Below, piece after piece: positions 1-63,662 of a stretch of 64,000 bases of DNA (its first letter is position 1; every line of letters begins with the position of its first letter). The notes beneath the pieces were generated by a model. It made no database searches, was not told where the DNA came from, and worked only from the letters and a program-made list of their open reading frames with translations. The translations under genes were made by a program, and so were the position numbers. This DNA comes from Candidatus Sungiibacteriota bacterium (GTDB lineage: Bacteria > Patescibacteriota > Minisyncoccia > Sungbacterales > HO2-52-23), in the NCBI GenBank assembly GCA_016180435.1, contig JACPBG010000001.1, forward strand, positions 136,358-200,357, given 5' to 3'.

Positions 1-2394
1 TAAAATATTCCAACACGTTAAGGCCTTCTTTATAAGAAGAGAGTACGGGTAATTCAATAATTTTTCCGGCGGGGTTTACCACAAGTCCTTTCATGCCTGC
101 CATCTGGCGAATCTGGGTCCAGGTGCCGCGCGCCCGCGATTCAACCATGGTTGAAACCGAACTTTCCGGATCAAGCGATGTCGGCACAAGCTTCGTGATG
201 TCTTCCACAACTTTCTGCCATATTTCCACGATTTTTTCATAGCGCTCGCGATCGGTAAGAAGCCCTCTTTGGTATTGTTCAATAATCTGCGAAACGCGCG
301 CTTCCGCATCTTTGATTATTTCTGGCTTGGCATCCGGTATTTTTAAATCATCAATCCCCCATGAAATTCCGGAGCGCGTGGCATATTCAAACCCGAAACG
401 CTTTATGCGATCCAGGATCGGCGGAGTATTCACGATGCCGTAGCGCTTGATGATATGCGCCACTACTTCGGCAAGATCGCGCGATTTCAGCTGCTCATTC
501 ACATATGGAAAATCGTCCGGCAATTCACGGTTAAAAAGCAAACGCCCGACCGATGTCTCAATCAATGTCAGGCCCGTGGGCAATGCGGCATGCGCCTCTT
601 CGGATTTTCGCCCCTCTATTTTGGATGACGGAACCCGAACTTTTATCAATGCCTGAAAATCAACAGCTCCAAACTCGTAAGCAAGCAGGGCATCATCTGC
701 TGATGAGAAAATTTTTCCTTCGCCTTTGAGTCCCTTGCGAACATTGGTCGCAAAATAACAGCCGAGCACCATATCCTTATCCGGATTTACAATCGGATCT
801 CCGGTTGCCGGTTTTAAAAGGTTGTTGGCCGAAAGCATGATATGGCGCGCCTCGGCTTGCGCTTCATCCGTAAGCGGCAGGTGCACAGCCATCTGGTCTC
901 CGTCAAAATCCGCGTTAAACGCCGGACACACCATAGGATGTATTTGAATGGCATCTCCCTCGATTAGAACCGGCTGAAAGGCCTGAATTCCCAAGCGATG
1001 CAGGGTAGGCGCGCGATTCAAAAGAACATATCTTCCCGCAATGACTTCTTCCAATACCGCCCACACGCGCGGATCCTGATCCTCGATCAAGCGGCCGGCG
1101 CCGCGGATATTATGCGCAAATCCCCGCTCAATGAGCTTTCGTATGACAAACGGCTTAAAAAGTTCCAGCGCCATTTTTTTCGGAATTCCGCATTCATTCA
1201 AATTCAAATCCGGCCCGACCACAATGACTGACCGGCCGGAATAATCCACGCGCTTACCCAAAAGATTTTGGCGGAAACGGCCTTGTTTGCCTTTCAAAAT
1301 GTCGGCCAGAGATTTTAAGGGTCGGCGCTGAACTTGGGATGCCACCGGGGCCACTCCGCGGCGGATGGAGTTATCAATCAAAGCATCCACTGCCTCCTGC
1401 AGCATTCTTTTTTCGTTGCGCGTAATAACATCCGGCGCATTCAACTCATGCAGGCGTTTCAGCCGGTTATTGCGGTTTATGACGCGCCGGTATAAATCGT
1501 TTAAATCAGATGTGGCATACCGCCCGCCGTCAAGCTGAACCATGGGACGCAGATCCGGAGGAATAATCGGAATCATGGTCAAAAACATCCATTCCGGACG
1601 TATGCCGGACCGGATTGCGCCCTTAATAATCTGCAGACGCTTCAAGGTTTTTCGCTGCAAAACCGGCGACTGATTTTCAAAATCCGCCTCAAGTTTCTTT
1701 TGCAGATCGGAAAGATTTATACCCTCCAATATCCTCCGGATCGCTTCGGCTCCGATGGACGCTTCAAATGCTTCGCCGAATTTTCTGGACAGGCGGTGAT
1801 ATTCTATTTCCGAAACAACTTGATGCATATGCAGCCCGCGAAGTTCCTCCCGCGCCTTATCGCGGATTTCTTTCAAACTTGCCAGATCTTCGCCGGCAAC
1901 GCCCTTGGATTTTAATTTGAATTCGCGCTCAATTTCCTCAAGCGATGTTTGACGCGCCTCCTCATTTATTTTGGTAATGATGTAACCCGCAAAATAAATT
2001 ACTTTTTCAAGATTCGCGACCGATATATCAAGAATCAAACCGATCTTGGAAGGCACGCCGCGCAAAAACCATATATGCGAAACCGGGGCGGCAAGTTTGA
2101 TATGCCCCATGCGCTCGCGGCGCACAATTGCGCGCGTAACTTCCACTCCGCATTTATCGCATACCACGCCCTTATAACGAATCCTGCGGTATTTACCGCA
2201 ATAACACTCCCAGTCCTTGGTGGGGCCGAAAATCCGTTCATCAAAAAGCCCGTCGCGTTCCGGACGCCCGGTACGATAATTTATGGTTTCGGGTTTAGTC
2301 ACCTCGCCGTATGACCAGCGGGTAATGGCGTCCGGAGAAGCCAGACGCAGGGCAATTCCCGAAAAATCTCCTAAAAATGATTGGATTTCTGGCA
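1..2394 (-). CDS. rpoC: DNA-directed RNA polymerase subunit beta' (N-terminal ~798 aa; ORF runs off the window 5' edge, so it is absent from the ORF track)
   Basis: Manual minus-strand translation from ATG at 2394-2392 gives [58 protein letters not shown]...[15 protein letters not shown], the canonical RpoC N-terminus and catalytic DFDGD motif. The frame stays open to position 1. Confidence 0.9.
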
Positions 2395-2415
2395 TCTATA
2401 CAAACGGTGGTTCTC

Positions 2416-2542
2416 AACAAATATGTTTAAAAATCTTCGTGAAATCCCGCCGTGATTTCACTCATCACGGGTCGGCCTCGCTCGTTCGCTTGCGCTCACA
2501 CCATGGCCGCTCGGCCTCCCAGTGTTTTTAAACATATTTGTC
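2416..2542. repeat. Structured repeat family H, copy 1, in the rpoB-rpoC spacer 22 nt upstream of the rpoC start
   Basis: Core ctcatcacgggtcggcctcgct...ggccgctcggcctcccagtg is shared with 52556-52680. It is bounded by the inverted repeat caaatatgtttaaaaa / tttttaaacatatttg. Confidence 0.6.
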
Positions 2543-2950
2543 TCGACCACCTTATTTTGATTTGCCTTATTATTTTAAATCACTATTTTAATAGTTATTT
2601 CGTGAATCTTTAGGTAGAAAATAAAAAATTATTAATAAACCACTTCACTATTGTAGCAACATTCGTCCGCCTTCGCTAAAGCTTCGGCAAGACATCGGCC
2701 TATCTTTATCTAAATAATCTCAACATTGTAACAGGCCTCGCAATAAACTATCTCCATCCTTTCCGGCGCGATTACAAAATCTTTTTTACAATTTTGGCAG
2801 TTTCGCGTTTCCATGTATTTTATCAATGGCCGCCATCGGCGGCTACATTATGCAAATCTCACTTTTTTCTTTTAAGGCGCTGAATGCTGTTTTGCGCGGT
2901 AACCGATATTTTTTGCAAAACTTTTAAGTGAGTCGGGGGAGGGACAATTT

Positions 2951-3085
2951 CGGATACAGTAATTTCAGACAATGGGAGGCAAAATTTGCTTGGTTCGTCC
3001 CGCTAAAGGCGGGACGAAAATTTTGCCGACCCTTAGCGAGGTTTTCGCAGGAAAAACCGAGACGTGTCTGAAATTACTGTATCCG
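2951..3085. repeat. Structured repeat family A, copy 1 (candidate ncRNA / REP-like element), 10 nt past the rpoB stop
   Basis: Outer 21-bp closing stem cggatacagtaatttcagaca / tgtctgaaattactgtatccg. Conserved unpaired cores AATGGGAGG and CGACCCTTAGCGA, two internal hairpins. Same architecture at 38201-38328 and 63457-63593, with compensatory stem changes. Confidence 0.65.
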
Positions 3086-3094
3086 AAAAATGTA

Positions 3095-6000
3095 TCACCG
3101 GGATACCACTTTCGCACGAGCGGCATACTGCCGACCCGGTTTTCGCTCCTCACCGGATTTCGGCGCCGGCACCTCTTTCTTTATCACGCTTACATCCAGC
3201 GCCAATCCTTTCAGCTCATTCACTAAAACATTGAACGACGCCGGAATATTCGGATTTTTAATTTTTTCGCCATTTATAATCGCCTCATACGTTGCCGAGC
3301 GCCCCAAAACATCATCCGACTTTATGGTCAATAATTCCTGCAGAGTATGGGCGGCTCCGTATCCTTCCAATGCCCAGACTTCCATTTCACCGAATCTCTG
3401 GCCTCCAAACTGCGCTTTTCCTCCCAAGGGCTGTTGAGTAATCAGGGAATATGGCCCGATGGATCGCATGTGAATTTTATCTTCCACCAAATGTATCAGC
3501 TTCATAATATATATATTGCCCACCGTGATTTTCCGGCCAAAACGCTCGCCGGTTCTTCCGTCATAAAGCGGAACTTTTCCGTCCTCGGGAAGCCCGGCTT
3601 TTTTAAGCTCGGCTTTTATCTCTTCTTCCGATGCGCCGGCCAGAGCCGGGGTCACGGCCCGATATCCCAATCTTTGAGCGGCCCAGCCAAGATGGGTCTC
3701 CAGAATTTGTCCGAGATTCATACGAGACGCGACTCCCAATGGATTTAAAATAACATCCACCGGAGTTCCATCTTCCAAATGCGGCATATCTTCCACCGGC
3801 AGAATTTTTGAAATAACACCCTTGTTGCCGTGCCGTCCGGCCAATTTATCGCCCACCGCAACTTTACGGAGCTGGGCAACTTCAACCTGCACGCGCTTGA
3901 TCACGCCGGCTTCCAGCTTGTCGCCGCGCTCGCGCGCAAATACTTTAATCCCGACTATCCGGCCCCGCTTGCCGTGCGGCAGACGCAATGACGTATCTTT
4001 GACATCGCGCGCTTTTTCCCCGAAAATCGCGCGCAATAATTTTTCTTCGGGTGTTAAATCGGATTCGCCTTTGGGCGAAATTTTTCCTACCAAAATATCG
4101 CCGGATCTTACCTCGGCCCCTATTCTTACAATCCCGTCCTCATCCAAATTTTTCAATTTTTCCTCTCCGACATTCGGAATATCATGAGTCGTGATTTCCG
4201 GACCAAGTTTAGTGTCGCGCACATCCACCGAAAAATCTTCAATATGCATCGAGGTAAACCGGTCATTTTCCAGCAGACGTTCCGAAAGAATTATGGCATC
4301 CTCATAATTCGCTCCGACCCAGGAAATAAACGCCACAAGCACATTCTGTCCAAGCGCCAATTCGCCGTCGCTAATAGAGGAACTATCGGCCAAAATATCG
4401 CCCTTCTTTACTTTATCTCCGCGATGCGCGACCGGGCGCTGTCTAATAACAGTAAAGGCATTGGTTCGCAAAAACGAAACCAGAGGATACACTTTCATTT
4501 TTCCGTTTTTATCTTTCACCCGAATTTCACGCGCGTCGGATGATTCCACAACTCCCGCATCTTCGGCGAGAATCACTCTCCCGGAATGGCGCGCCGCATC
4601 AACTTCAACTCCGGTCCCGACATATGGAGCATCGGCGCGGACACACGGCACCGATTGGCGCTGCATGTTTGAGCCCATCAACGCGCGGTTGGCATCATCA
4701 TGCTCAAGAAAAGGGATCAGGCTGGTTGCGATGCTAATTGCCTGCTGTGGAGATACATCCATATAATGAACGTCTTTTTTCTCGATAACTCCCGGGTTTC
4801 CATGTATGCGCGCCTCAATACGCCCAAGTGTGATATTTCCATCGTGATCAATATCAATGCCTGCGTGCGCGATATTAACTTTTGTCTCGAATGCCGCATC
4901 CAGATATTCAATCTCCCCGGTAATTTTGCCGTCCGTGACTTTCATATACGGAGTTAGTATAAGTCCGAGATCGCTTAAGCGCGCGTAACCGGACATATGC
5001 CCCACCAGTCCGATGTTTGGCCCTTCCGGCGTTTGAATCGGACAGATTCTTCCGTAGTGCGAAGGGTGCACATCGCGCACCTCGAATCCGGCGCGTTCTC
5101 TTTGCAGTCCCCCGGGTCCCATGGCCGAAAGACGGCGCTTGTGCTCAAGCTCGGACAACGGATTGATTTGATCCATAAATTGCGAAAGCTGGGATGAAGT
5201 GAAAAATTCCTTGACAGACGCCATAAAAGGACGCGCATTTACCAACTGAGCCGGAGTCAGTGTAACCGGATCAAATGTTGACATGCGATCCTTGACAATT
5301 CTTGCCATGCGCGCAACCCCGACCCGTAATTTATTCTGCAAAAGTTCGCCGACGCAACGCACCCGGCGATTTCCAAGATGATCAATGTCGTCTACCGCCG
5401 CGTCCGGCGCATTATTCAACCGGATTATTTCACGAAGAATCGCAGTAATTTCCTCGGCTCCAAGCACACGATCCTTGGGATCTTTTACGTTTTTTTTCAA
5501 ATCAAGGCGCTGATTCAATTTAAAACGCCCCACTTCTGCCAAGTCATATCGATCCTGTCCGAACATAGCGCGAATAAGAGAGCGCGCATTATCCACGGCC
5601 GCAAGATCCCCGGGACGTATGCGCCGGTATATTTCAATAAATGCGTCATCCGCATTTTTGGAAGAATCGCGCTCCAGGGTTTTTCGCATGTAAGATATCT
5701 CTCCGGTATCAAAATCCTTGAAAAGATTGAGTATGGCGTCATTATCAGCCACGCCAAAAATGCGAAGCAGGACCGAAGCCGGCACTTTTCGCTTGCGGTC
5801 GATTTTCACCTGAATTGCGCCGTCCGAATCTGTTTCAAATTCAAGCCAGGCCCCGCGATTCGGAATTACTTTAGCGCCGAATAGTTTTCTGCCTCGATTC
5901 AAATAAGCCGTGAAATAAACGCCGGAGGAACGTATAAGCTGGGAAACCACAACTCGCTCTACCCCGTTTACTATAAAGGTTCCGCGCGGAGTCATTAACG

Positions 6001-16772: not shown

Positions 16773-16816
16773 AACAGTGACAGAGATAATATAGAGATTA
16801 CATTAAGGTCTATCAA

Positions 16817-16858
16817 TGTTTTTCATTAATTCGCGATCGCGAATTAATGAAAAACATA
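16817..16858. promoter_or_regulatory. Perfect 42-nt palindrome (family F, copy 1) about 45 nt upstream of mpg
   Basis: atgtttttcattaattcgcgatcgcgaattaatgaaaaacat; near-identical copy at 43659-43693. Confidence 0.5.
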
Positions 16859-16897
16859 TAAAAATATTAAATTTCAGATTAATCAGAGTCCGGCTTG

Positions 16898-18094
16898 TTA
16901 AATCTTAGCTAGTGCCAACTTTAAATCCTCAATCAAATCCAGAGGGTCTTCCCTGCCGATTGATAATCGCAAGGTCCCTTGAGTAATTTCAGCCTTGGCG
17001 AGTTCTTCTTTAGTCAATTGCCCGTGCGTAGTGGTGGCCGGATGAATCACAAGTGAACGCGACTCACCAATATTTGGCGCATGCCAAAAAAGGCGCAATG
17101 ATTCCAGCACGCGTTTAGCGTCACGTCTTCCGCCTTTTATTTCAAAGGCCATGAGTCCCCCAAAACCCTGCGGCATGATTTTTTTATTCTCCCGCGCACG
17201 GGGACCGAAAGCGGGATAAAATACACGCCGAACTTTGGGGTGCTTTGAAAGAAACCGGGCAACCCTAAGAGCGTTTTTCGAGTGTTCCATGACCCGGCCA
17301 AAAAGCGACTCGGCATGCGATAGAAAAATCGCGGCATTGTCCGGAGACATGCAAGGCCCCAATGTCCTAAACCAACCAAGTCGCATGTCGTCAATCAATC
17401 TTTTCTTCCCGACAATGCATCCGCCGATCACCTCGCCATCGCCAAAATATTTTGAGAGCGAATGCCACACGATATCTGCGCCCCGTTTCAAAGGCTGCGC
17501 CAGAGCCGGGGTTGCCAAAGTGTTATCTATAACCAATTTTATGCCATGACGATGCGCGATTTTAGCAATCGGACGCGGATCAAACAAATCAATAAGGGGA
17601 TTGGATGGATTTTCCAACGCAAGAAACCGGGTATTAGACCGAATGGCGCGTTCCCACTCGTCAAGATCATATGGATTTTCCAGGAGAGTAACCTCAATAC
17701 CAAGTTTCGGGAGCAATTCACGAAAAAGATGCAACACGCCGCCATAGAGCCGGTTAGACGAGACAATATGTCCGCCGCCATTCGCGAGGTGCAAAGATAT
17801 TATAAGAATCGCGGACATGCCGGACGAAGTAGCAAGTCCGGCCTCTGCTCCTTCCAACACTGCGACCCGTTTTTCCAAACGATCAACAGTGCGATTATTA
17901 ATACGGCTGTAAATAAAACCCCCTTCCTTTCCTTCAAAAAGGCGTTTGGCTCGTTCAAAAGATCCAAGGGGGTAAGCAGTTACGCGGTCAACCACGGGCC
18001 GAAGTTCGTGATCTTTGAAATCACCTCCTCCATGTATTTCAAGGGTTCGCGGCCTCAATTTCCATAGATTTTTTGCTGAAAGTTTTTTCTTCAT
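16898..18094 (-). CDS. PLP-dependent Cys/Met-metabolism enzyme (O-acetylhomoserine sulfhydrylase / cystathionine gamma-synthase family)
   Basis: TLEIHGG N-terminal motif, HSLSKYFGDG with the PLP lysine, overall family fit. The track ORF extends to 18163 across the tRNA region, so the start is placed at the internal Met (MKKKLSAK). Confidence 0.7.
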   Translation of the reverse strand: MKKKLSAKNLWKLRPRTLEIHGGGDFKDHELRPVVDRVTAYPLGSFERAKRLFEGKEGGFIYSRINNRTVDRLEKRVAVLEGAEAGLATSSGMSAILIISLHLANGGGHIVSSNRLYGGVLHLFRELLPKLGIEVTLLENPYDLDEWERAIRSNTRFLALENPSNPLIDLFDPRPIAKIAHRHGIKLVIDNTLATPALAQPLKRGADIVWHSLSKYFGDGEVIGGCIVGKKRLIDDMRLGWFRTLGPCMSPDNAAIFLSHAESLFGRVMEHSKNALRVARFLSKHPKVRRVFYPAFGPRARENKKIMPQGFGGLMAFEIKGGRRDAKRVLESLRLFWHAPNIGESRSLVIHPATTTHGQLTKEELAKAEITQGTLRLSIGREDPLDLIEDLKLALAKI

Positions 18095-18164: not shown

Positions 18165-18239
18165 CAGCCTCACCGGGATTCGAACCCGGGTTACCAGGAT
18201 GAGAACCTGGCGTCCTAGACCAAACTAGACGATGAGGCC
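18165..18239 (-). tRNA. tRNA-Glu (anticodon CTC)
   Basis: Minus strand: GGCCTCATCGTCTAGTTTGGTCTAGGACGCCAGGTTCTCATCCTGGTAACCCGGGTTCGAATCCCGGTGAGGCTG. Anticodon stem CCAGG/CCTGG with loop TTCTCAT. Confidence 0.8.
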
Positions 18240-18270
18240 AAAAAGGTGGGAAGGTGAAAGAACCTAGTGT

Positions 18271-18349
18271 CCTAGGCCACTAGACGATAGGGGCATAAAT
18301 CGCCAGAATTTTGGAAAAATCTGGACTAGACCGGACTAGACGACAGGAG
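18271..18349 (-). repeat. Repeat family G, copy 1: tRNA-Glu-like 5' fragment (acceptor plus D-arm) plus upstream region with further D-arm-like GTCTAGT words
   Basis: Minus strand: GCCCCTATCGTCTAGTGGCCTAGG..; about 85% identical to 34318-34395. Confidence 0.55.
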
Positions 18350-18468
18350 TATAAAAAATGGGTCGGTCGGAGCCGTAACGTGTTATATCTCATCATATAC
18401 CATCATCTTACAATGAATAATGATAAATGAGGAGTTATTTTGCAGGAGGTCTATATATTCACCGGACC

Positions 18469-22267: not shown

Positions 22268-22367
22268 TAGACCTACTGCACAAAGATTTTCGTCACGAAA
22301 TTTAAGAATTTCGAGGCAAAATCGCTGAACAAACTTTGCGGCCTATCGCTTAGATAAGCCAAAAAGC
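22268..22367. repeat. MITE-like family B, copy 1 (left arm plus centre); overlaps the 3' end of the thioredoxin-like gene and provides its stop codon
   Basis: tagacctactgcacaaagattttcgtcacgaaatttaagaatttcgaggcaaaatcgctgaacaaactttgcggcctatcgcttagataagccaaaaag is near-identical to the first 100 nt of 53158-53321. Confidence 0.7.
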
Positions 22368-22918: not shown

Positions 22919-22924
22919 AGTATT

Positions 22925-23033
22925 TAGAACTTACGCGTTTAAATGAAAAGACCCGCTTTTGTCATTCCCGTGAAAACGGGAATCCAGTATTTTAGGCATA
23001 TATCGGGAATGACATTAAACGTGTAAATCCTAA
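22925..23033. repeat. MITE-like family C, copy 1
   Basis: acttacgcgttt...gtcattcccg..cgggaatccagtattttaggc is shared in inverted orientation with 27691-27824. Confidence 0.65.
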
Positions 23034-23117
23034 TATTGAAGAAATTACAAGAATAAAAAATCTCCGCTCAAGGAGATTGAAAAGGCGCGCGACATAAAAC
23101 CAATTCGACAAACGGTT

Positions 23118-27644: not shown

Positions 27645-27690
27645 ATTTTTAACTATACCATAGCTTGATATAAATAAAAGCTTACTATTT

Positions 27691-27824
27691 TAGGACTTAC
27701 GCGTTTGATGTCATTCCCGACTTGATCGGGAATCCAGGAAACCCATATTTGCCTAAAATACTGGATTCCCGTTTTCACGGAAATGACAAAAATGGGTCTT
27801 CCCATTCAAACGCGTAAGTCCTAT
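27691..27824. repeat. MITE-like family C, copy 2 (full palindromic form)
   Basis: Terminal inverted repeats aggacttacgcgtttga / tcaaacgcgtaagtcct; inner inverted repeat gtcattcccg / cgggaatgaca. Confidence 0.65.
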
Positions 27825-27908
27825 ATTTAAAAGAATTACAACACTTGATTAAATGTGCCTAATATAGTAAGCTTATGCATATAATTTCCGGAACCGAAGG
27901 AAAGAAAA

Positions 27909-30512: not shown

Positions 30513-30520
30513 TCATTTAT

Positions 30521-30634
30521 TAGACCTACTACGCAAAGATTAATCTACTGCAATTTAATAATTTCGGCCAAAATCGCTTCAAAACTTTTTGGCTTATCTA
30601 AGCGATAGGCCGCAAAGTTTGTTCAGCGATTTTG
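30521..30634. repeat. MITE-like family B, copy 2 (inverted; right arm plus centre), supplies the obg stop codon
   Basis: Reverse complement matches 53207-53321. Preceded by ttattag, like the full copy. Confidence 0.7.
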
Positions 30635-34304: not shown

Positions 34305-34317
34305 TACACCAACTCCT

Positions 34318-34395
34318 CCTAGGCCACTAGACGACGGGGGCATAAATCGCCAGAATTTTGAAGAAATCGGGAATAGACCGAAATAGACGACAGGA
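34318..34395 (-). repeat. Repeat family G, copy 2 (tRNA-Glu-like 5' fragment plus upstream region)
   Basis: Minus strand: GCCCCCGTCGTCTAGTGGCCTAGGAGG; about 85% identical to 18271-18349. Confidence 0.55.
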
Positions 34396-34580
34396 ACACA
34401 AAATGTTTGATTTCTTATCTTACTACAATTCTTACTACGATATACTAAAAATAAAGCGCTTTCACAAGGAAACTTAATCACGGAATGGCTTTTTTTATTT
34501 GACAAAGCCAAAAAATAGATGTATTAAATCTGTATTAAGAGGGTTGGCTCTTTTAAAACCCAGTATGGAGGAGGCTCAAA

Positions 34581-38076: not shown

Positions 38077-38200
38077 TTTTTATCATACCTGACCCTTCGG
38101 GTCATTTTTTTATTTTTCAAAGCGCGGAGCGCTACCTTAATACAAACCGCACTCCCCACACCGAGATGCCGCAAACATCAATAAATGTATAAGGGCGAGC

Positions 38201-38328
38201 GTATCACTATTTCAAAACAATGGGAGGACAAGTTTGCATGGTTCGCCGTCTGCAGACGGCGAAAACTTGTCCGACCCTTAGCGAGTTTTTGCGCTGGCAA
38301 AAACGAGCGTGTTTTGAAATAGTGATAC
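38201..38328. repeat. Structured repeat family A, copy 2, 7 nt past the ftsI stop
   Basis: Closing stem gtatcactatttcaaaaca / tgttttgaaatagtgatac covaries relative to copies 1 and 3. Cores AATGGGAGG and CGACCCTTAGCGA are conserved. Confidence 0.65.
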
Positions 38329-38334
38329 CGAACC

Positions 38335-40062
38335 CTATTTTTCATCCGGCGGTATCTCGTAATAATTCAAAATATACTCCGCCAAATCATGAAACGCCGT
38401 AGTCAGAGTGTTAGCCGCAAAACGATTCCCCGTAGGAGAGTTAAGCTGCAAAAATACCAGAAACTTCGGATTAAACGCCGGCGCATATCCGACAAAAGAA
38501 TGAATTACTTCATCCGAATACCCCCGGCCGTCGCGACGTGGAATTTGAGCTGTGCCGGTTTTTCCTGCCACAAAATATCCTTTAACGCCTGCCCGATTTT
38601 CATATCCTATCCGCACCACGGAAATAAGCATTTTAGTCAGAGTTTCGGCGGTTTCTTTGGAAATCACCTGCCGCACTTCCTGCGGTTCCTTTTTAATTTC
38701 ATTCCCCGAATCATCCACAATTCTTTCAACAACATAAGGCCGCATCAATTTACCCTCATTAGCAATGGCGCCTGCCGCCATCGCCATCTGCAAAGGGGTT
38801 ACGGCGATTCCCTGCCCGAAAGATGCGGTGGCAAAGTCAATTTCCCGCTCCGCGGAAAGATTGGAAATATTTCCGGAGACCTCTCCCGGCAGATCAATGC
38901 CGGTTTTTTCGCCAAACCCAAATTTTTTCAAAAAAGCCCACTGCCGGTCGCGGCCCAATAACCGTGCCACGTGCACCGCCCCGGTATTTAACGATTTTTC
39001 AAGAACCTGAGTCATAGTCTGCGTTTTATAGGTTTTGCCGTCAAAATTTTTAATGGTATAACCCTTGATCTTTATCTCTCCGAAGTCATAATAGGTCGAA
39101 TCCGGACGGACCACGCCATCTTCGATACCTCCGGCCATGGTGATGGGCTTCATAACCGATCCCAATTCATACATTGATTCCGCCGCCGGATTCAAAAAAA
39201 CAGAAAAATCCTTTTCCCTTGAAAAAGCATTCGGGTCAAATGCCGGAGATGAAGCCAGCGCCAGAATTCTTCCGGTCCTCGGCTCAAGAACAATTGCCAG
39301 ACCCCGATCCGCCTCCCATTTTTTTCTATAGGCCGCGAGCACTTCTTCCGTTTTTTGCTGTATATTGTGATCCAGCGTCAAAAAAAGTTTTGATCCCTCT
39401 TTGGGCGGATGGATGATCCGGCGTCCGAGGGCCACCCAAAAACCGGCAGCATCTTTCACGCCCTCAAGCATCCCCTTGTTCCCGGCAAGGTCCGATTCGT
39501 AGTAACGCTCCAATCCGTATCGTCCTTCCTCATCCTCCTGAATCCTGCTGACAAACCCGAGTAAATGCGCAGCCATGGCGCCATACGGATAATAACGCGC
39601 CTTCCCCTCCTCAATATAAATGCCCGGCAGGCGGCGCGCCGCAATGCGCTCAGCCGATTCCCGGCTGATATTTTTTTCTAATACTTCGTAAAAGTCCCCT
39701 TTCTTCCCAAGTTTAGCGAAAATCTCTTCCTGCGGAAGCGATAAGTCCTTTCCAAGAATTTCCGCGAGTTCAGCAGGACTTGCGATGTCTTCCGGGGATG
39801 CAATAACCGCCCAAGACGATCGGCTGATTGCCAATGGTATGGAATTACCGAATTTATCGCCGGCAAAAATGGAACCCCGTTCTGCCAAAAGTTCCACAAC
39901 CTGCCGATGCTGGCGGGACGCGGATTTAACAAAATCCTTATGATCAATAATCTGCAATTGAAAAAGCCTGCCGAGAAGAGCCAGTCCTGCCGTCAAAAAA
40001 AAGAGGAGGATCCAATTCATCCGCCTCCTTATACTTGCGTCAAATTTAGGAATGCGTGGCAT
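38335..40062 (-). CDS. ftsI: Peptidoglycan D,D-transpeptidase (PBP2/FtsI class B penicillin-binding protein)
   Basis: SVMKP (SxxK), KTGTAQ (KTG) and N-terminal TM/dimerisation region; position after ftsL. Confidence 0.85.
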   Translation of the reverse strand: MPRIPKFDASIRRRMNWILLFFLTAGLALLGRLFQLQIIDHKDFVKSASRQHRQVVELLAERGSIFAGDKFGNSIPLAISRSSWAVIASPEDIASPAELAEILGKDLSLPQEEIFAKLGKKGDFYEVLEKNISRESAERIAARRLPGIYIEEGKARYYPYGAMAAHLLGFVSRIQEDEEGRYGLERYYESDLAGNKGMLEGVKDAAGFWVALGRRIIHPPKEGSKLFLTLDHNIQQKTEEVLAAYRKKWEADRGLAIVLEPRTGRILALASSPAFDPNAFSREKDFSVFLNPAAESMYELGSVMKPITMAGGIEDGVVRPDSTYYDFGEIKIKGYTIKNFDGKTYKTQTMTQVLEKSLNTGAVHVARLLGRDRQWAFLKKFGFGEKTGIDLPGEVSGNISNLSAEREIDFATASFGQGIAVTPLQMAMAAGAIANEGKLMRPYVVERIVDDSGNEIKKEPQEVRQVISKETAETLTKMLISVVRIGYENRAGVKGYFVAGKTGTAQIPRRDGRGYSDEVIHSFVGYAPAFNPKFLVFLQLNSPTGNRFAANTLTTAFHDLAEYILNYYEIPPDEK

Positions 40063-41927: not shown

Positions 41928-42195
41928 AGCAGTGATGCCAATCTACGAATTTAATGCCAATCTACAAATTGCGAATTTACGAATCCTCTACTTCCCTCCC
42001 GCCTAATAAGTTAGTAAGTCCTATTTACCCGGCGAGATGATCCGATTTCGAGACCATGATTTGGTCGAGCGGGCATGGTTCCGAGCGAAGCCAAATTTGA
42101 TTTGGCGAAGCGAGGAGAGCGAGACCAAATCCTGAGGTGAGCGAGCACGCCGGGCGAGCGATAGCCGAGTCGAGAAATTGGATTATCTCGTCGGG

Positions 42196-43532: not shown

Positions 43533-43658
43533 AAGATCAAAACTATACCATGCATATCATGATCAAGTTTAAATTACAATATAGACCCTATCACGTCGCC
43601 ATCGAACTGGATTATATATTTTAGCAGGCCGAAAAAATTCTAAGTTAGATTTATTAAT

Positions 43659-43693
43659 GTTTTTCACTAATTCGCGATCGCGAATTAGTGAAA
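43659..43693. promoter_or_regulatory. Perfect palindrome (family F, copy 2) upstream of the saccharopine-DH-family gene
   Basis: tttttcactaattcgcgatcgcgaattagtgaaaa; same TTCGCGATCGCGAA core as 16817-16858. Confidence 0.5.
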
Positions 43694-43913
43694 ATTAATA
43701 AAAAATGGGTCCCCATGGGCAAGCCCCGTCACCAAAATTTTGACAGTTTCTGTGCCGCCCCGAATAAGCTGGCGGGATATACTCTGTATTTCTTGATATA
43801 TGTTCATCTCTCTTGGGATGGAAACGAAAGCGGCAGTCAAAATTTGGTGCGGGGCAAGCCCATGATCTTTTGGAGCATGGATAAAAATCCGCCTAAAGGC
43901 GACTACAATGAAG

Positions 43914-45514: not shown

Positions 45515-45561
45515 AGTTTATACCATAACATATTTTACATAAAATTCTAATCTCTAATTTC

Positions 45562-45671
45562 GAGTTTGGTGAATAATGCATAAATAAATTATTTTTCGAG
45601 CAAGCCGCAACAGCGGCGCGTCGAGAAATTACCTTAATCCATAATGTACTTCTCGACAGGCTCGAAGAATA
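45562..45671. repeat. MITE-like family E, copy 1 (inverted, one terminus only)
   Basis: Matches the reverse complement of 60105-60247; shares the ttcgagcctgtcgagaa core with family D. Confidence 0.65.
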
Positions 45672-45718
45672 AAAGTTGCTTAAAATCTTAATTCTAAAAC
45701 ATAGATTCGACAAGATCG

Positions 45719-50927: not shown

Positions 50928-52550
50928 ATGAATACCTTGCATGAATTCAAGAATGAACCGCACCTGGACTGGACTAATGAGGAAAACCGAAACGCCATGC
51001 GAAATGCCCTGCAACGGGTAAAAGGCGAGTTCGGAAAATCATATCTGATTATTATTGACGGAGAGTGGTCGCTTGCCAAAAAATCATTTTATTCGTTTGA
51101 TCCGGCGACCTGCAATCCGCGTATAAATCCGCATGGTTTTGATCCAACCCGCGACATAATAGGCATTGCATATACGGCTGGCCCAAATGATATTGACCGC
51201 GCAGTTAGAGTTGCTGAAAAAATAATTACGGAATGGCGCAAACTTGGCGTGGAAAAGCGCGCCGAATTGCTTTGGCGCGCCGCGCAAATCATGCGCGAAC
51301 GAAAATTTGAACTCGCCGCCTGGCTGGTTTATGAAGTGTCAAAATCCTGGGATGAGGCCATAAGCGAAGTTGAAGAAGCGATTGACTTCATTGAACTTTA
51401 TGTCCGCGAGAGTTATTTCTTTTTCGGTGAATTCCCTACGGCATCGCTCAAATCCGAAGAAAATATTCTTACAGCGGTTCCGCGCGGTCCGACTGCCGCC
51501 ATATCAACTTGGAATTTCCCGATCGCTTTGGCAGTTGAAAAAATAGCCGCATCGCTTGTTTGCGGATGTCCGGTGCTTTTCAAGCCGGCGGAACAGGCCT
51601 TTGTATGCGGATGGATGGCGGTTAAATGTTTTCTGGATGCGGGAGTGCCCCCGGAACTTATTGCTTATCTTCCGGGCGGGGATGAAGTTGGCAAAGCACT
51701 GGTAACATCCCGGGGAATCGCGCAAATCGCTTTTACTGGATCGGTTGAGGCGGGCATTGCCATAAATTTGTCCGCCGCCCAAACTCCCGGAAAATTCGGC
51801 ATCAAGGGGTTTGAACCGGAACTTGGCGGCAATAACGCCGTCATTGTTTGCCCGAGCGCCGTGCATGATTCCGCCATACGCGACATCCTGCATTCCAAAT
51901 TCGGCTTCAACGGCCAAAAATGCTCGGCACTGCAACGCCTTATTTTCGTGGGATCGCCGCTGGATTGCACGCCGCGAAAAATATGCGAAGGAGTAATTGA
52001 GGCTGCCAAATCGCTTGAATACGGGCATCCGGAAAATCCGGCTTATCGCCACACCTCTCTCATTGACAACGATGCCTATAAAAAAGTCCTTGAACGAATT
52101 GAGGCCTTGAAATGCTACGCGAATCCTTGTTATGAGCAAATGTTAAAAAAAGTTGATCGCGGGTATTTTGTAGGTCCGATTATTTTTGATAAAATTCCGC
52201 CTCATCTCGGATTTGTTCAGGAAGAAATATTCGGTCCAGTGCTTATGATTTTTTATGCTAGATCCTTGGAAGATGCGGTTTTACTTGCCAATAGCACTCC
52301 CAATGCCCTGACTGGAGGGGTTTTTACGGAGTTGGAAAGCGAGATTGAATACGCCAAACAAAATATTGATGTGGGAAATTTTTACGCCAACCGCCCTATC
52401 ACTGGGGCCATGGTCGGACGCCAGCCTTTCGGAGGATTTAAATTTTCCGGCAATGGCAAAAAAGTGGGGTGTCCGGAACGCCTGAATTTTTTTCTGAATC
52501 AAAAAACAGTGACGATCAACCGCGAGCGCTACGGCGCTTTGCTGAAGTAG
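50928..52550 (+). CDS. Aldehyde dehydrogenase family, likely 1-pyrroline-5-carboxylate dehydrogenase
   Basis: ALDH signatures ELGGNNA and FGFNGQKCSALQR (catalytic Cys); translationally coupled to the PRODH gene (stop/start overlap). Confidence 0.75.
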   Translation: MNTLHEFKNEPHLDWTNEENRNAMRNALQRVKGEFGKSYLIIIDGEWSLAKKSFYSFDPATCNPRINPHGFDPTRDIIGIAYTAGPNDIDRAVRVAEKIITEWRKLGVEKRAELLWRAAQIMRERKFELAAWLVYEVSKSWDEAISEVEEAIDFIELYVRESYFFFGEFPTASLKSEENILTAVPRGPTAAISTWNFPIALAVEKIAASLVCGCPVLFKPAEQAFVCGWMAVKCFLDAGVPPELIAYLPGGDEVGKALVTSRGIAQIAFTGSVEAGIAINLSAAQTPGKFGIKGFEPELGGNNAVIVCPSAVHDSAIRDILHSKFGFNGQKCSALQRLIFVGSPLDCTPRKICEGVIEAAKSLEYGHPENPAYRHTSLIDNDAYKKVLERIEALKCYANPCYEQMLKKVDRGYFVGPIIFDKIPPHLGFVQEEIFGPVLMIFYARSLEDAVLLANSTPNALTGGVFTELESEIEYAKQNIDVGNFYANRPITGAMVGRQPFGGFKFSGNGKKVGCPERLNFFLNQKTVTINRERYGALLK

Positions 52551-52555
52551 TCCGG

Positions 52556-52680
52556 AAACTGCTTTTAAAAATCTTCGCAAAATTCCACCGTAATTTTGCT
52601 CATCACGGGTCGGCCTCGCTCTTTCCGTTTCACGGAAAACCGTGGCCGCTCGGCCTCCCAGTGTTTTTAAAAGCAGATTT
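52556..52680. repeat. Structured repeat family H, copy 2, immediately after the ALDH stop codon
   Basis: Same core as 2416-2542; closing inverted repeat ctgcttttaaaaa / tttttaaaagcag (differs from copy 1). Confidence 0.6.
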
Positions 52681-52801
52681 CCTTCCTTAATGGATTTGCT
52701 TTAAGTTTATGCGGCATTTTCTATGCCGCATTTTTAATTTTTGCATTTGCATACACAATAAAATGTGTTATATTCAACGCAGTTCCTAAAAAAGTTAAAG
52801 A

Positions 52802-53128: not shown

Positions 53129-53156
53129 AACGCGGATTAATCGCGTTTATTTTTTA
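53127..53156 (+). terminator. Intrinsic terminator after the zinc-ribbon ORF
   Basis: aaaaCGCGGattaaTCGCGtttt then tttttt. Confidence 0.65.
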
Positions 53157-53157
53157 T

Positions 53158-53321
53158 TAGACCTACTGCACAAAGATTTTCGTCACGAAATTTCAGAATT
53201 TCGAGGCAAAATCGCTGAATAAACTTTGCGGCCTATCGGCCAAGATAAGCCAAAAAGTTTTGAAGCGATTTTGGCCGAAATTCTGAAATTGCAGTAGATT
53301 AATCTTTGCGCAGTAGGTCTA
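53158..53321. repeat. MITE-like family B, full-length palindromic copy (about 164 bp, 22-bp terminal inverted repeats)
   Basis: tagacctactgcacaaagatt ... aatctttgcgcagtaggtcta; the terminal cta provides the TAG stop of the minus-strand ORF 53319-53573. Confidence 0.7.
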
Positions 53322-53573
53322 TTCAACTCCTCCGACTTTTTCCACAATAGCGCGGTTAATTTCATCTTCAGTGGCGCCTTCGGGCAAACCGAGTTCTTTG
53401 ATCAATTCTTCGCGCTCCTTTCTTTCTTTTCGCTCTTGCAATTTTTCAAACGGCAAAACTTTGACTTTTTGTCCGGGCTTTTGCCCGGATTCCGGTAGCG
53501 GCTTTTCTTTCCGCTGGCGGTATTCATCAAGGTTCACGACGTTTTCGAAATTATTTTGAGGAGTTTTTTCCAT
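53319..53573 (-). CDS. Hypothetical small charged protein
   Basis: 84-aa Lys/Glu-rich ORF. Confidence 0.35.
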   Translation of the reverse strand: MEKTPQNNFENVVNLDEYRQRKEKPLPESGQKPGQKVKVLPFEKLQERKERKEREELIKELGLPEGATEDEINRAIVEKVGGVE

Positions 53574-54031: not shown

Positions 54032-54667
54032 TCAGAAACGTAAATTATTATTAATAAGTTTTGCAAAAGCAATTAATTGTTCACGAGTAAATTTTTCATC
54101 AGCCATTAAAGTTACGAAGAAGCGACCAGAGCTATCAGCAAACATCAAGGATCTCTCAAGATTTTTTTCTTTATCCATATAAAAGTAAAATCCTTTCTTA
54201 CCGACATCAATATTGTCTATGCTAGCGCCGCCCAATTTACCCAAAGCCTCATATGAATCGAGCATCTTAAACGCTGAGTCTGCATAAATTACGTTGGCGC
54301 TTATATTAATATTATTATTGTTTCCATATTGACAAAAAATAATTTTTTCAGTTTGAAACGCATCCATCATGGGGTCGGAAGCCAAATTTGTATTCACTAA
54401 AAATAGTTTGTTTACATCTTTTGCCGAAGCTATTTGTGAACAACTAAATTTAAAACTACTGGAACCAATTTTGTCATTCGACGGTACTTGAGTCGGCGAG
54501 GCAGAAGGCGTTGTTTTTTGTGTAAACCCTTGCGGGCCAGACGGCGTTGATCTGCTTATAGTGTTGATGGCTCTATTGTAAAAATAAAATGCGCCTCCTA
54601 TTACAATTACTGCTGCCGCAACGATCACTAGCAATGAAATATATCCGCGATTATTTGATGTTTTCAT
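54032..54667 (-). CDS. Hypothetical membrane-anchored extracellular protein
   Basis: 211 aa, N-terminal TM, Ser/Thr/Pro-rich linker; low GC. Confidence 0.4.
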   Translation of the reverse strand: MKTSNNRGYISLLVIVAAAVIVIGGAFYFYNRAINTISRSTPSGPQGFTQKTTPSASPTQVPSNDKIGSSSFKFSCSQIASAKDVNKLFLVNTNLASDPMMDAFQTEKIIFCQYGNNNNINISANVIYADSAFKMLDSYEALGKLGGASIDNIDVGKKGFYFYMDKEKNLERSLMFADSSGRFFVTLMADEKFTREQLIAFAKLINNNLRF

Positions 54668-56430
54668 TATTTTATATTTTCTTCTTGGCCAATATTAATA
54701 GTTGGCTCCACTGAGGCGTATTTTCGGATGAAATAAATATCATTCGCGTTTTGTATGGTATCTATGCCTCTGGTTTTATCATACCTGCCTCCGATATTGT
54801 AATTCAAAACTGATACGGGTGCGGTTTGATTTTTTCCAGTTCCGTCTCCAAGTTGTCCAGTTTCATTGCCGCCCCAACACTTCATTTCTCCATTCGATAA
54901 CAAAGCGCAGCTATAATTTACACCGGCCGCAATGGCAACAGCGTTAGTGATGGCAGAAGAAGAAATCTCGCCCCCTGCACTCCCGCCCCAACATTTTACT
55001 TGTCCGCTTGATAACAAGGCGCAAGTATGAAAAGATCCAACCACAACAGATGTAGCATTGGAAATGCTGCCGCCATTAAGCTGGCCGCCACCATTATCGC
55101 CCCAGCATTTAATTGTGCCACCAGTTAGCAAAGCGCAGGTATGGCTTTCGCCAGCACTTAAAGCAGATACGCCATTTAAACCAGAAACCACAACTGGCGT
55201 GGCTTCGTATTGAAGCTTTGTAGAAGCGCCTAACTGTCCGCTAGTATTCCAGCCCCAGCATTTTACGGTGGCGTTGGAAAGCAAAGCACACGTGTGGTTG
55301 CCGCGAGCTATCAGTGCTACTGCATCATCAATACCTATAACTGATATTGAGGTATTTTTAGAAACAGTTGTCCCATCGCCTAATTGACCATGACTATTTT
55401 CGCCCCAGCATTTTACAGAGCCGTTTGATAATAAAGTACAGGTGTGCTTCCAGCCAGCCGCTATTGCTATCGCATCATTTATTCCTGAAACCAAAACCGG
55501 AGAACTTTTACTTGTTCCGTAACCGTCTGTTCCTATACCTAACTGGCCATAGAGATTATACCCCCAACATTTCACGTTCCCACCGGAAAGCAATGCGCAT
55601 GTGTGTTTCCAGCCAGCGCTTACGGCCATCGCATTATTTATGCCTGACACAGCAACGGGCGTAGATTTATAATCATAAGACGCGCTTGAACCATATCCTA
55701 GCTGGCCCCAATCATTTTGGCCCCAGCATTTAACCCCACCACTCGAAAGTAAAGCGCAAGTATGTGCGCCGTTTGCAGAAATAATATTTTCCTTTTTCAA
55801 ACCAAACGCCAAAAAAGTATTTTGTCCGTTGCTTAGAAAAGATGCTGACGCGTTGCCGTAATATAAATAAATTTTGCCACTGGGCGCAGTGATAGACGGA
55901 ACTTTTACCCAAATTTTTGAATTCTCCGAGTTACATCCGGATTCCATCCAGTAATTAAGCAAAACAGTGCTGCCAAAATCAGTAAATCGCATATCGCCAC
56001 AATCTGAACGCATTTTGCCTGCAGATACAAGCGAGGCAGTATCTAAAGATATTAAAATCTGATAATTGGAAAGTGCTGTGGCAGAAGATATAGAAATTAA
56101 TTTTCTATATTGCCAATTTGGCAAAATTTTTACTGGTTCGGATTTAAGTACTGTCGGCGTTGGAGTTTGACTTGGTACTATGATTTTTGGTGTAGCAGGC
56201 CGCACAGTGGGCGTTTGAGTAGACTGGGTGAAAGGCGCTGTTACTTGCAGCTCCGTTTCCGAAGGCGCGGCCTGTTTATCTTTTGGCTCCGGAAAAGATA
56301 AAGGATTTGATGTAATCTTTTGTGAACCTGTCGGCACTGAAGAAGGATTAATGAAAATATTTAAATAAACATAAGCGCCCCCAAGTAAAACAGCGGCGAT
56401 AATTATAGAAATTATTACTAATTTAACCAT
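54667..56430 (-). CDS. RCC1-repeat (beta-propeller) surface protein with N-terminal TM anchor
   Basis: About eight repeats of the HTCALLS.G.VKCWG.N..GQLG pattern; PT-rich linker. Confidence 0.7.
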   Translation of the reverse strand: MVKLVIISIIIAAVLLGGAYVYLNIFINPSSVPTGSQKITSNPLSFPEPKDKQAAPSETELQVTAPFTQSTQTPTVRPATPKIIVPSQTPTPTVLKSEPVKILPNWQYRKLISISSATALSNYQILISLDTASLVSAGKMRSDCGDMRFTDFGSTVLLNYWMESGCNSENSKIWVKVPSITAPSGKIYLYYGNASASFLSNGQNTFLAFGLKKENIISANGAHTCALLSSGGVKCWGQNDWGQLGYGSSASYDYKSTPVAVSGINNAMAVSAGWKHTCALLSGGNVKCWGYNLYGQLGIGTDGYGTSKSSPVLVSGINDAIAIAAGWKHTCTLLSNGSVKCWGENSHGQLGDGTTVSKNTSISVIGIDDAVALIARGNHTCALLSNATVKCWGWNTSGQLGASTKLQYEATPVVVSGLNGVSALSAGESHTCALLTGGTIKCWGDNGGGQLNGGSISNATSVVVGSFHTCALLSSGQVKCWGGSAGGEISSSAITNAVAIAAGVNYSCALLSNGEMKCWGGNETGQLGDGTGKNQTAPVSVLNYNIGGRYDKTRGIDTIQNANDIYFIRKYASVEPTINIGQEENIK

Positions 56431-60104: not shown

Positions 60105-60247
60105 AGTTTGGTGAATAATAAGATTAAGCCAATTTTATTCTTCGAGCCTGTCGAGAAGTACATTATGGATTAAGGTAATTTCTCGACGCGCCACTGTCAC
60201 GGCTTGCTCAAAAAATAACCTATTTTATGCATTATTCACCAAACTCA
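60105..60247. repeat. MITE-like family E, full-length palindromic copy
   Basis: Terminal inverted repeats gagtttggtgaataat / attattcaccaaactc around ttcgagcctgtcgagaagtacattatggattaaggtaatttctcgac. Confidence 0.65.
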
Positions 60248-60325
60248 AAGTAACAAATTTGCATAAATATATGCGTTGTGTAAAATTAAATTGTCGCAAC
60301 ATTATAAAAGATATCATTAAAATCT

Positions 60326-63296: not shown

Positions 63297-63456
63297 TTAC
63301 TATATATTTAAATCCCCACCACGTGGGGATTTAAATATATTCATACTTAACTTTTCTTCTTAAGGCGCATGCCGTGTATGAACTTACTATCAAGATAATT
63401 CGGTCGAGGCAATATGATTTTGAAACAAAAGCCCCCAGTGAGTTATTGCGGCTTCG

Positions 63457-63593
63457 TATATTGTAATTTCAGACAATGGGAGGACGCGAAAGCTTGGTCC
63501 GAGCACTCAAAAATTTTGAGTGCTCGGTTTCGCGTCCGACCCTTAGCGAATCCCGCGCTGGACGGGACGAGTCGTGTCTGAAATTACAATATA
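63457..63593. repeat. Structured repeat family A, copy 3, 70 nt past the groEL stop
   Basis: tatattgtaatttcagaca ... tgtctgaaattacaatata closing stem. Conserved AATGGGAGG and CGACCCTTAGCGA cores. Internal hairpins differ from the other copies with compensation. Confidence 0.65.
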
Positions 63594-63662
63594 CGAGAGC
63601 CGCGTAAGCGAGTAAACGTGTTTCAAAATCATGTTGCCGAGTAAACCGAATTATCAAGTCCA

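Follow-up and report, generated by a model that had tools for sequence, protein, structure and literature searches.

The stretch of DNA analysed here (64 kb, hereafter the window) belongs to a groundwater candidate-phylum (Sungbacteria-like) bacterium of the Parcubacteria/CPR group, and carries rpoB and rpoC near its start, both on the minus strand (Table 1). RpoB homologues are those of Candidatus Sungbacteria, the best match being 92% identical and the remainder ≤79%, and rpoC begins at an ATG at 2395-2393 with a start (MPE...) that aligns with rpoC of a sister lineage (locus L001). The rpoB-rpoC junction is among the most conserved gene junctions in bacteria and is normally tight. Here it is occupied by a gap of 699 bp (2396-3094), against 20, 1, 0, 45 and 88 bp in five other Sungbacteria (L004-L008, respectively; RpoB 76-79% identical), bearing out the first-pass annotation, which had called the spacer abnormally long. 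The gap starts one base further on than that annotation had it (2396, not 2395), the minus-strand orientation of the two genes went unmentioned there, and the description of the gap as AT-rich held only mildly, with a GC content of 0.409 in the spacer (0.363 once the repeats are removed) compared with 0.448 in the window and 0.49 in rpoB. Intergenic regions in the window are generally long for a CPR bacterium (median 163 nt, twelve of ≥300 nt). The lack of a Shine-Dalgarno sequence before rpoC was considered as a special feature and rejected, as the genome is poor in such sequences overall; across the whole window, an SD-like 4-mer lies upstream of only 9 of 50 long ORFs.

Table 1. Features of the rpoB-rpoC junction and repeat copies in the window. 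R1 and R2 are covariance models built here from A-type copies only and from all subtypes, respectively; their E-values are rough.
Feature	Coordinates	Strand	Basis and remarks
rpoC, N-terminal 798 codons, runs off window	2..2395	(-)	Pfam Rpb1 domains 1-4
H1 (H subtype), core 2423-2535	2407..2551	(-), same as rpoC	R1 34 bits, E=2e-5; R2 69 bits, E=3e-14
AT-rich block, partly conserved with L001	2560..2668	(-)	alignment with L001
Small hairpin GCCGAAGC-TTTA-GCGAAGGC, GAA/GAA internal mismatch	2669..2688	(-)	sequence read directly
33-codon ORF METRNCQNCKKDFVIAPERMEIVYCEACYNVEII	2710..2811	(-)	homology to CPR zinc-ribbon proteins
Hairpin GCCGCCGATGGCGGC (2843-2829) and promoter-like TTAAAA-17-CATAAT (2875-2847)	2829..2875	(-)	promoter: consensus match only
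A1 (A subtype), core 2959-3077	2947..3089	(+), antisense to rpoB/rpoC	R1 118.7 bits, E=3e-26
rpoB, 1079 codons	3095..6334	(-)	Pfam, six Rpb2 domains, E down to 7e-125
Further repeat family	16803-16870, 43647-43706
Further repeat family	18270-18356, 34317-34403		one copy beside tRNA gene (18165-18239)
Further repeat family	22268-22366, 30516-30634, 53153-53326
Further repeat family	22922-23036, 27687-27826
A2	38196..38338	(+)	3' end abuts stop of ORF 38335-40062(-)
Third-subtype copy (ACCAUGAU...)	42043..42180	(+)	R1 E=0.4; R2 46 bits, E=9e-9
Further repeat family	45544-45694, 60113-60264
H2	52545..52690	(-)	3' end abuts stop of ORF 50928-52550(+), antisense; R1 48 bits, E=1e-8
A3, core 63463-63587	63400..63655	(+)	nested in outer stem and P1 of a second, core-less copy

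Along the direction of transcription, the rpoB stop codon is followed after 9 nt by a structured repeat copy (A1) and then, ~70 nt further on, by a promoter-like match and a GC hairpin, both upstream of a 33-codon ORF. A small GA-mismatched hairpin stands immediately past this ORF, ahead of an AT-rich block of ~110 nt, a second repeat copy (H1) and a final 11 nt before the rpoC ATG. The AT-rich block carries a candidate extended -10 box, TGCTACAAT, at 2658-2650 (L001 counterpart TGTTATAAC), as well as CTACCTAAAGATTCACG, which is conserved with L001; a promoter scan did not call the candidate -10 box. The block could be a promoter or leader of rpoC.

The centre of the spacer holds the remains of a gene that the first-pass annotation missed. 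The 33-codon ORF consists of the first 17 residues of a zinc-ribbon/treble-clef protein of ~100 aa fused in frame to its last ~17. Its counterpart in L001 is a 105-codon frame that opens with METRNCQNCKNEF, is interrupted by a single in-frame TAA and closes with ...RPEIVYCEACYNSEVV; over its full length it matches intact CPR hypothetical proteins of 97-113 aa, with E-values down to 6e-22. Pfam returns weak zf_Tbcl/Zn_ribbon matches on the remnant. The intact family shows the pattern CxxC...CPxC...C.C...CxxC; in the alignment with these homologues the CPxC segment is missing from the L001 version, and the window ORF retains only the first and last CxxC. On this alignment evidence, the window ORF is an in-frame deletion remnant, not a working family member, suggesting that a small zinc-ribbon gene was inserted between rpoB and rpoC and is now decaying. 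A link between the zinc-ribbon family and the repeats was considered and rejected, as intact homologues occur elsewhere with no repeat nearby.

Both structured repeats lie where they had first been noted, the arms of A1 forming a 21-bp stem (P1) at 2951-2971/3065-3085 and the H1 hairpin spanning its full extent in Table 1. H1 comprises an outer stem (GGTGGT/ACCACC), a CGAG/TGAG cap, P1 and a three-way-junction core, and its distance to the rpoC ATG is counted from the outer stem. Each folds well beyond shuffled sequence (z = -12.6/-11.4 for A1 and -6.2/-5.0 for H1), each recurs in the window, and each is recovered by covariance models at rough E-values of 1.5e-25 (A1) and 3e-14 (H1), which chance does not explain. 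With filters off, model R2 finds six copies in the window, scoring 46-116 bits on one strand; only the complements of two A copies score at all, at ~10 bits, as exemplified by A1 (115.8 bits on the plus strand and 10.1 bits on the reverse). Copies within the window are only 64-90% identical, and thus do not reflect a recent burst. The third-subtype copy is antisense to both flanking minus-strand ORFs and has GAU/AUC in place of GGG/CCC in the helix P2a. An assembly artefact or a chance palindrome is a very improbable origin for the long spacer or its repeats: metagenome assemblers can be misled by repeats, but three independent sister-lineage assemblies share the long spacer, the ORF remnant and an element before rpoC, model matches reach rough E-values of 1e-25, and the folds lie 5 to 12.6 SD beyond shuffled sequence, the value varying with copy and strand.

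The window also contains at least five other families of palindromic or dispersed repeats, unmatched by model R2 (Table 1). Separately, a 65-nt unit occurs seven times at 54851-55764, at spacings of 114-159 nt and with its diverged copies 66-75% identical, within the minus-strand ORF 54667-56430, which presumably encodes a repeat-domain protein.

The first-pass annotation had regarded the two spacer repeats as unrelated. This is contradicted by model R1, which, though derived from A-type copies only, recovers every H copy over its full length (model positions 1 to 115) at rough E-values of 5e-10 to 4e-4, and also finds a third subtype in which the GGG/CCC helix P2a is replaced by GAC/GUC or GAU/AUC. 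A and H are subtypes of one superfamily. The element measures ~115-165 nt; its long hairpin (P1), to which an outer stem is often added, leads into a three-way junction. On the sense strand, taken as the strand reading ACAATGGGAGG, the common plan runs from P1 through ACAMUGGGAGG to P2, which has an asymmetric 5' bulge (GCYWYGGU) and a terminal hairpin, then through CCGACCC-KURRYGAG to P3 with its 7-nt loop, and back through CGAR to P1'. Junction bases are nearly invariant, and stem sequences vary freely while pairing is kept. The arms pair within copies, differ between copies and covary; only their innermost portion, TTTYRRRACA/TGTYYYRAAA, is common. Many terminal loops are GAA-type triloops rather than GNRA or UNCG tetraloops.

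Covariation was assessed on a MAFFT alignment of 30 A-type cores made without reference to any structure. In it, 94.4% of cells pair under the three-way junction drawn by hand, compared with 67% when shuffled and 38-50% with the partners slid, and 31 of the 39 pairs show double-sided changes. Helix positions that depart from Watson-Crick pairing are strongly skewed, with 99 G.A/A.G against 8 C.U/U.C and 42 G.U against 23 A.C. CGAG/CGAG caps occur at the bases of P1 and P3, within some P3 stems and within the H-type P2. At the P3 cap, a C-G to U-A change spans the two G.A pairs, and the P1-base cap reads CGAG/CGAG in 29 cases, TGAG/CGAA in six and CGAA/TGAG in three. This antiparallel covariation marks the YGAR motifs flanking P1 as a structural motif and not a target-site duplication. 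As the caps can form tandem G.A pairs, the sense strand folds better than its complement, and was indeed the more stable fold in 31 of 40 copies, although both strands form very stable hairpins.

Repeats of this superfamily are restricted to CPR genomes and metagenomes, where they amount to more than 100 distinct copies. A degenerate pattern scan of species-representative genomes returned 36 loci, of which 34 were genuine, all 34 in CPR/Patescibacteria MAGs; a single MAG, Parcubacteria GW2011_GWA2_45_30, contains at least 19 pattern matches. The same pattern occurs in at least 120 stretches of JGI metagenomes and in none of the viral contigs scanned, and a covariance-model scan of the metagenome loci added 99 matches, the metagenome copies deriving in part from redundant strains. 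Some intergenic sites carry a copy in one genome and lack it at the orthologous position of another (L044 and L035 at two sites, L024 and L013, L007 and L006), in pairs only 70-80% identical, at which level precise insertion boundaries are not readable. Elements also nest: in L012 (2279-2489), an A-like P1 encloses an H copy, and at ~6500-6800 in L029 there are three nested layers, the inner copies lying between host ..AGYGAG and CGAG.. in the position of P3. Nested hosts have an inner copy at the P3 position and a decayed P2 of their own.

Gain and loss are also visible at the rpoB-rpoC junction. In the sister lineage (L001-L003, three independent assemblies with RpoB 92% identical), the spacer is 927 bp long and its repeat content differs. 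Alignment of the window spacer with that of L001 finds homology in three places only, namely the two ends of the small ORF, the AT-rich block and the outer stem that precedes rpoC. The position of A1 behind rpoB is taken in L001 by a mini-hairpin (AGTTCC-CGAG-CTTGT-CGAG-GGACT) and an unrelated palindrome with a 24-bp stem, and that of H1 before rpoC by an A-type copy; H1 and this A-type copy are enclosed by a common outer stem, GGYGGTYGAG...GAGAACCRCC. The proposal that small non-autonomous elements had struck this spacer repeatedly is upheld by this difference in palindrome and copy, and by presence and absence at orthologous sites elsewhere. Together with the 0-88 bp spacers of the other Sungbacteria, the alignment is best read as a recent, lineage-specific expansion of an ancestrally tight junction.

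Several smaller structures were also observed. Mini-hairpins of the form [variable stem]-YGAG-CTTGT-CGAR-[stem'] occur in L001 (13305-13335, directly after the rpoB stop codon and at the position of A1 in the window), L076 (7849-7873) and L094 (5602-5626), and could represent either a minimal relative of the element or a landing site. The 88-nt rpoB-rpoC spacer of L008 contains two small hairpins of the GTCATTCCCG...CGGGAATGAC type (3570-3650), and the window has a similar motif (TCGGGAATGACAT) in two places, 23003-23036 and 27687-27720. In L001, source pipelines called short 'genes' of 46 aa (2015-2155) and 65 aa (17887-18081) in repeat-bearing intergenic DNA, the latter coinciding with a repeat copy at 17906-18020; both calls are likely annotation artefacts.

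Placement relative to genes is not random. Among 106 distinct copies, with ORFs taken as simple longest-ORF calls and metagenome copies partly redundant, an opposite-strand stop codon lies within 45 nt of the core 3' end in 52 and a same-strand start codon within 60 nt of it in 17, while a same-strand stop codon near the 5' end is rare; of the copies that abut an ORF, around three quarters are antisense after stop codons. The typical copy therefore stands directly after a gene, with its well-folding strand corresponding to the gene's template strand. The rule holds for A1, A2 and H2, for the third-subtype copy and for the L001 copy after rpoC. The rarer sense orientation, just before a start codon, is that of H1 and of the L001 copy before rpoC, and is found before glmS in a third genome. 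In a type IV pilus operon of L011 (1488-7200), arranged pilM-N-[A]-O-[A]-x-[H]-pilB, three sense copies lie between cistrons and a reversed copy follows pilB. The genes beside the copies have no function in common (rpoB, rpoC, RNase J, glmS, pilus genes), and the constant orientation upstream of a coherent gene set that marks a cis-regulatory leader or riboswitch was not observed.

This placement rule lends real support to the main rival to an explanation in terms of mobile DNA, namely that they are cis-acting RNA signals of the host, with a function set by orientation, and that the spacer is a regulated rpoB-rpoC boundary, as the first-pass annotation had proposed. For the regulated processing or attenuation which that annotation suggested, the orientation rule gives indirect support. 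Antisense copies after stop codons would end or protect the upstream message, and sense copies before start codons would serve as a leader between cistrons or as a site of processing by, for example, a double-strand-specific RNase. The sense copies between pilus cistrons with a reversed one at the operon end, the sense copies preceding rpoC in two genomes and glmS in a third, and the very stable hairpins formed by both strands all agree with such a role, and the strong conservation of unpaired bases, together with the non-random position and orientation, would also fit host function. Against this, no U-tract follows the hairpin in either orientation (U and A in the flank profiles are at ~0.3-0.5), so that the combination of GC-rich hairpin and U-tract typical of an intrinsic terminator is lacking; a terminator scan called nothing at A1 and only the internal P3 in H1. 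Furthermore, the commonest orientation puts C.U mismatches rather than G.A caps into the mRNA, the adjoining genes share no function, the rpoB-rpoC junction of close relatives is 0-88 bp long and free of elements, and nesting is not expected of regulatory signals. Overall, we regard host RNA signals as an unlikely, though far from negligible, account of these repeats.

Less probable still is that the sense strand specifies a small structured RNA present in many copies, whether a self-cleaving ribozyme of a new type or an RNA that binds protein. It would be transcribed independently or from divergent promoters nearby, and the two rpoB-rpoC copies would be two of its genes. Invariant junction bases, covarying stems, GA-rich strands in a three-way junction, the strong strand specificity of the covariance model and a superficial resemblance of the H type to hammerheads are what such an RNA would display. 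However, searches of Rfam 15 returned only four tRNAs in the window at gathering thresholds and, in the spacer at E up to 10, three matches of 12-16 bits, well short of threshold; neither BLAST of the flanks nor position profiles revealed a conserved flank, promoter or T-tract across copies; and many of the loops are GAA-type triloops instead of GNRA or UNCG tetraloops. A small GC hairpin followed by ATACAWTAAGAAAA precedes the core by ~31-48 nt in 11 copies (e.g. L001 13995-14030, L014 4115-4150). A TAYAWTAA box at this distance from 11 copies would suit independent transcription, and within 140 nt upstream the box occurs in 15 of 107 copies, ~ten-fold over background, but the ACAAU remnant of a decayed host copy accounts for it better than a -10-like box does. 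An apparent upstream motif, CTACCTTAAG, proved to be coding sequence of orthologous divergent genes.

We favour instead, with a probability of roughly 0.6, the reading that the spacer consists of a decaying zinc-ribbon gene and two oppositely oriented copies of a single structured interspersed repeat superfamily of the REP/ERIC/Correia-like kind. The elements would be non-autonomous mobile or duplicative DNA, as suggested by the many copies per small genome, gain and loss, nesting and mutual replacement at one site; they would be tolerated at gene ends, and two of them would have been inserted into the rpoB-rpoC gap in opposite orientations. The conserved branched fold is probably the substrate of the copying machinery. 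It would most likely act as single-stranded DNA, given that the strand that folds well is in most cases the template strand of the adjacent gene; single-stranded DNA would be the simplest explanation for strand asymmetry and antisense bias together. Counting against mobile DNA is the absence of its classical hallmarks: terminal arm sequences are not conserved between copies, there is no target-site duplication and no partner enzyme was found. The divergence of the window copies likewise gives no sign of a recent burst. Across 1.3 Mb of loci, no gene was found inside any copy and no split copy flanked a gene as an autonomous version might, and widely separated motif pairs considered as autonomous copies resolved into chance matches within genes or neighbouring copies. 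Nor were empty frames or GA-capped mini-hairpins enriched as insertion targets, with 38 occurrences compared with 30 in shuffled sequence and 46 for a permuted motif.

Under the mobile-DNA reading, insertion would have had consequences for expression. Upon transcription of the rpoB-rpoC region, both copies would be expected to form RNA hairpins of 20 bp or more, A1 in the usual end-of-gene orientation and H1 in the rarer leader orientation before the rpoC ATG. With such hairpins in the transcript, rpoC would probably be at least partly uncoupled from rpoB, by RNA processing at the hairpins and/or by a promoter within the spacer, for which the conserved AT-rich block is a candidate. A bolder proposition, which we consider doubtful, is that the repeats go beyond junk DNA and constitute a new class of CPR-only, strand-specific folded nucleic acid whose insertion split rpoB and rpoC into separately controlled genes. 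As single-stranded DNA, it may be a recombination substrate targeting GA-capped hairpins, its own P3 included; as RNA, it may be catalytic or protein-binding and punctuate operons.

An insert of 0.7-0.9 kb at rpoB-rpoC illustrates the extent to which selfish or semi-domesticated repeats intrude into the tiny genomes of CPR bacteria, and strict co-expression of the two largest RNA polymerase subunits may have been lost in this lineage. As a structure, the repeat is abundant and well defined, combining a three-way junction, tandem-G.A caps, >100 copies and strong covariation, and is a candidate for structural probing, a lead towards the enzyme that copies it, and an annotation marker for CPR intergenic DNA, where spurious ORFs are now called across elements.

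Full-text literature searches found no description of these repeats; Rfam lacks them, they match none of the known repeat families, and the family is best read as previously undescribed and REP/ERIC/Correia-like. Its likeness to hammerhead ribozymes consists of a three-way junction with GA-rich junction strands and of the H subtype reading GUGAUGAG-stem-CGAAG where hammerheads have CUGAUGAG-stem-CGAAA. The A subtype, in contrast, lacks this motif and reads UUAGCGAG...CGAG, and the A15.1-U16.1/H17 arrangement is absent from the element; with no Rfam match near threshold, we conclude that it is not a hammerhead or another known ribozyme, and the hammerhead reading of the H type was rejected. The repeats resemble MITEs in being small, non-coding, present in many copies and polymorphic for insertion, but were rejected as such, as terminal inverted repeats are not common to the copies and there is no target-site duplication.

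Integron attC sites, which are 57-141 nt long, share with the element a position directly after ORFs, the conservation of structure over sequence and a folded strand complementary to the coding strand. Here, in contrast, there are no cassette arrays and no integrase, and the neighbours are housekeeping genes (rpoB, rpoC, RNase J, glmS); both R-boxes (RYYYAAC...GTTRRRY) were present in 0 of 100 copies on either strand, with single boxes at chance level, and attC identity was rejected. REPs are simple hairpins of 20-40 nt with conserved sequence (GTAG), often arranged as inverted doublets, and the associated RAYT is a Y1 HUH transposase; their effects on mRNA 3' ends are secondary. REP, BIME and REPIN repeats, as generally described, resemble the element as structured, non-autonomous repeats at gene 3' ends whose fold is recognised on one DNA strand. 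A REP or REPIN unit was nevertheless rejected as an identity, as the conserved part here is a branched core of 115 nt and not a short unit.

ERIC/IRU elements of enterobacteria and Correia elements (CREE/NEMIS) of Neisseria are imperfect palindromes whose arms are conserved in sequence as terminal inverted repeats, and Correia elements make a TA duplication. The present element differs from both in that its arms are free and covarying, its branched three-way-junction core is conserved, no duplication is seen and its hosts are CPR bacteria. In common with them, as they are usually described, it forms imperfect palindromes of ~100-160 bp that are non-coding and present in many intergenic copies near gene ends; those elements are co-transcribed with adjacent genes as long hairpins whose orientation has a bearing on the flanking mRNA. 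Compared by description, therefore, the element appears to behave most like ERIC or Correia elements.
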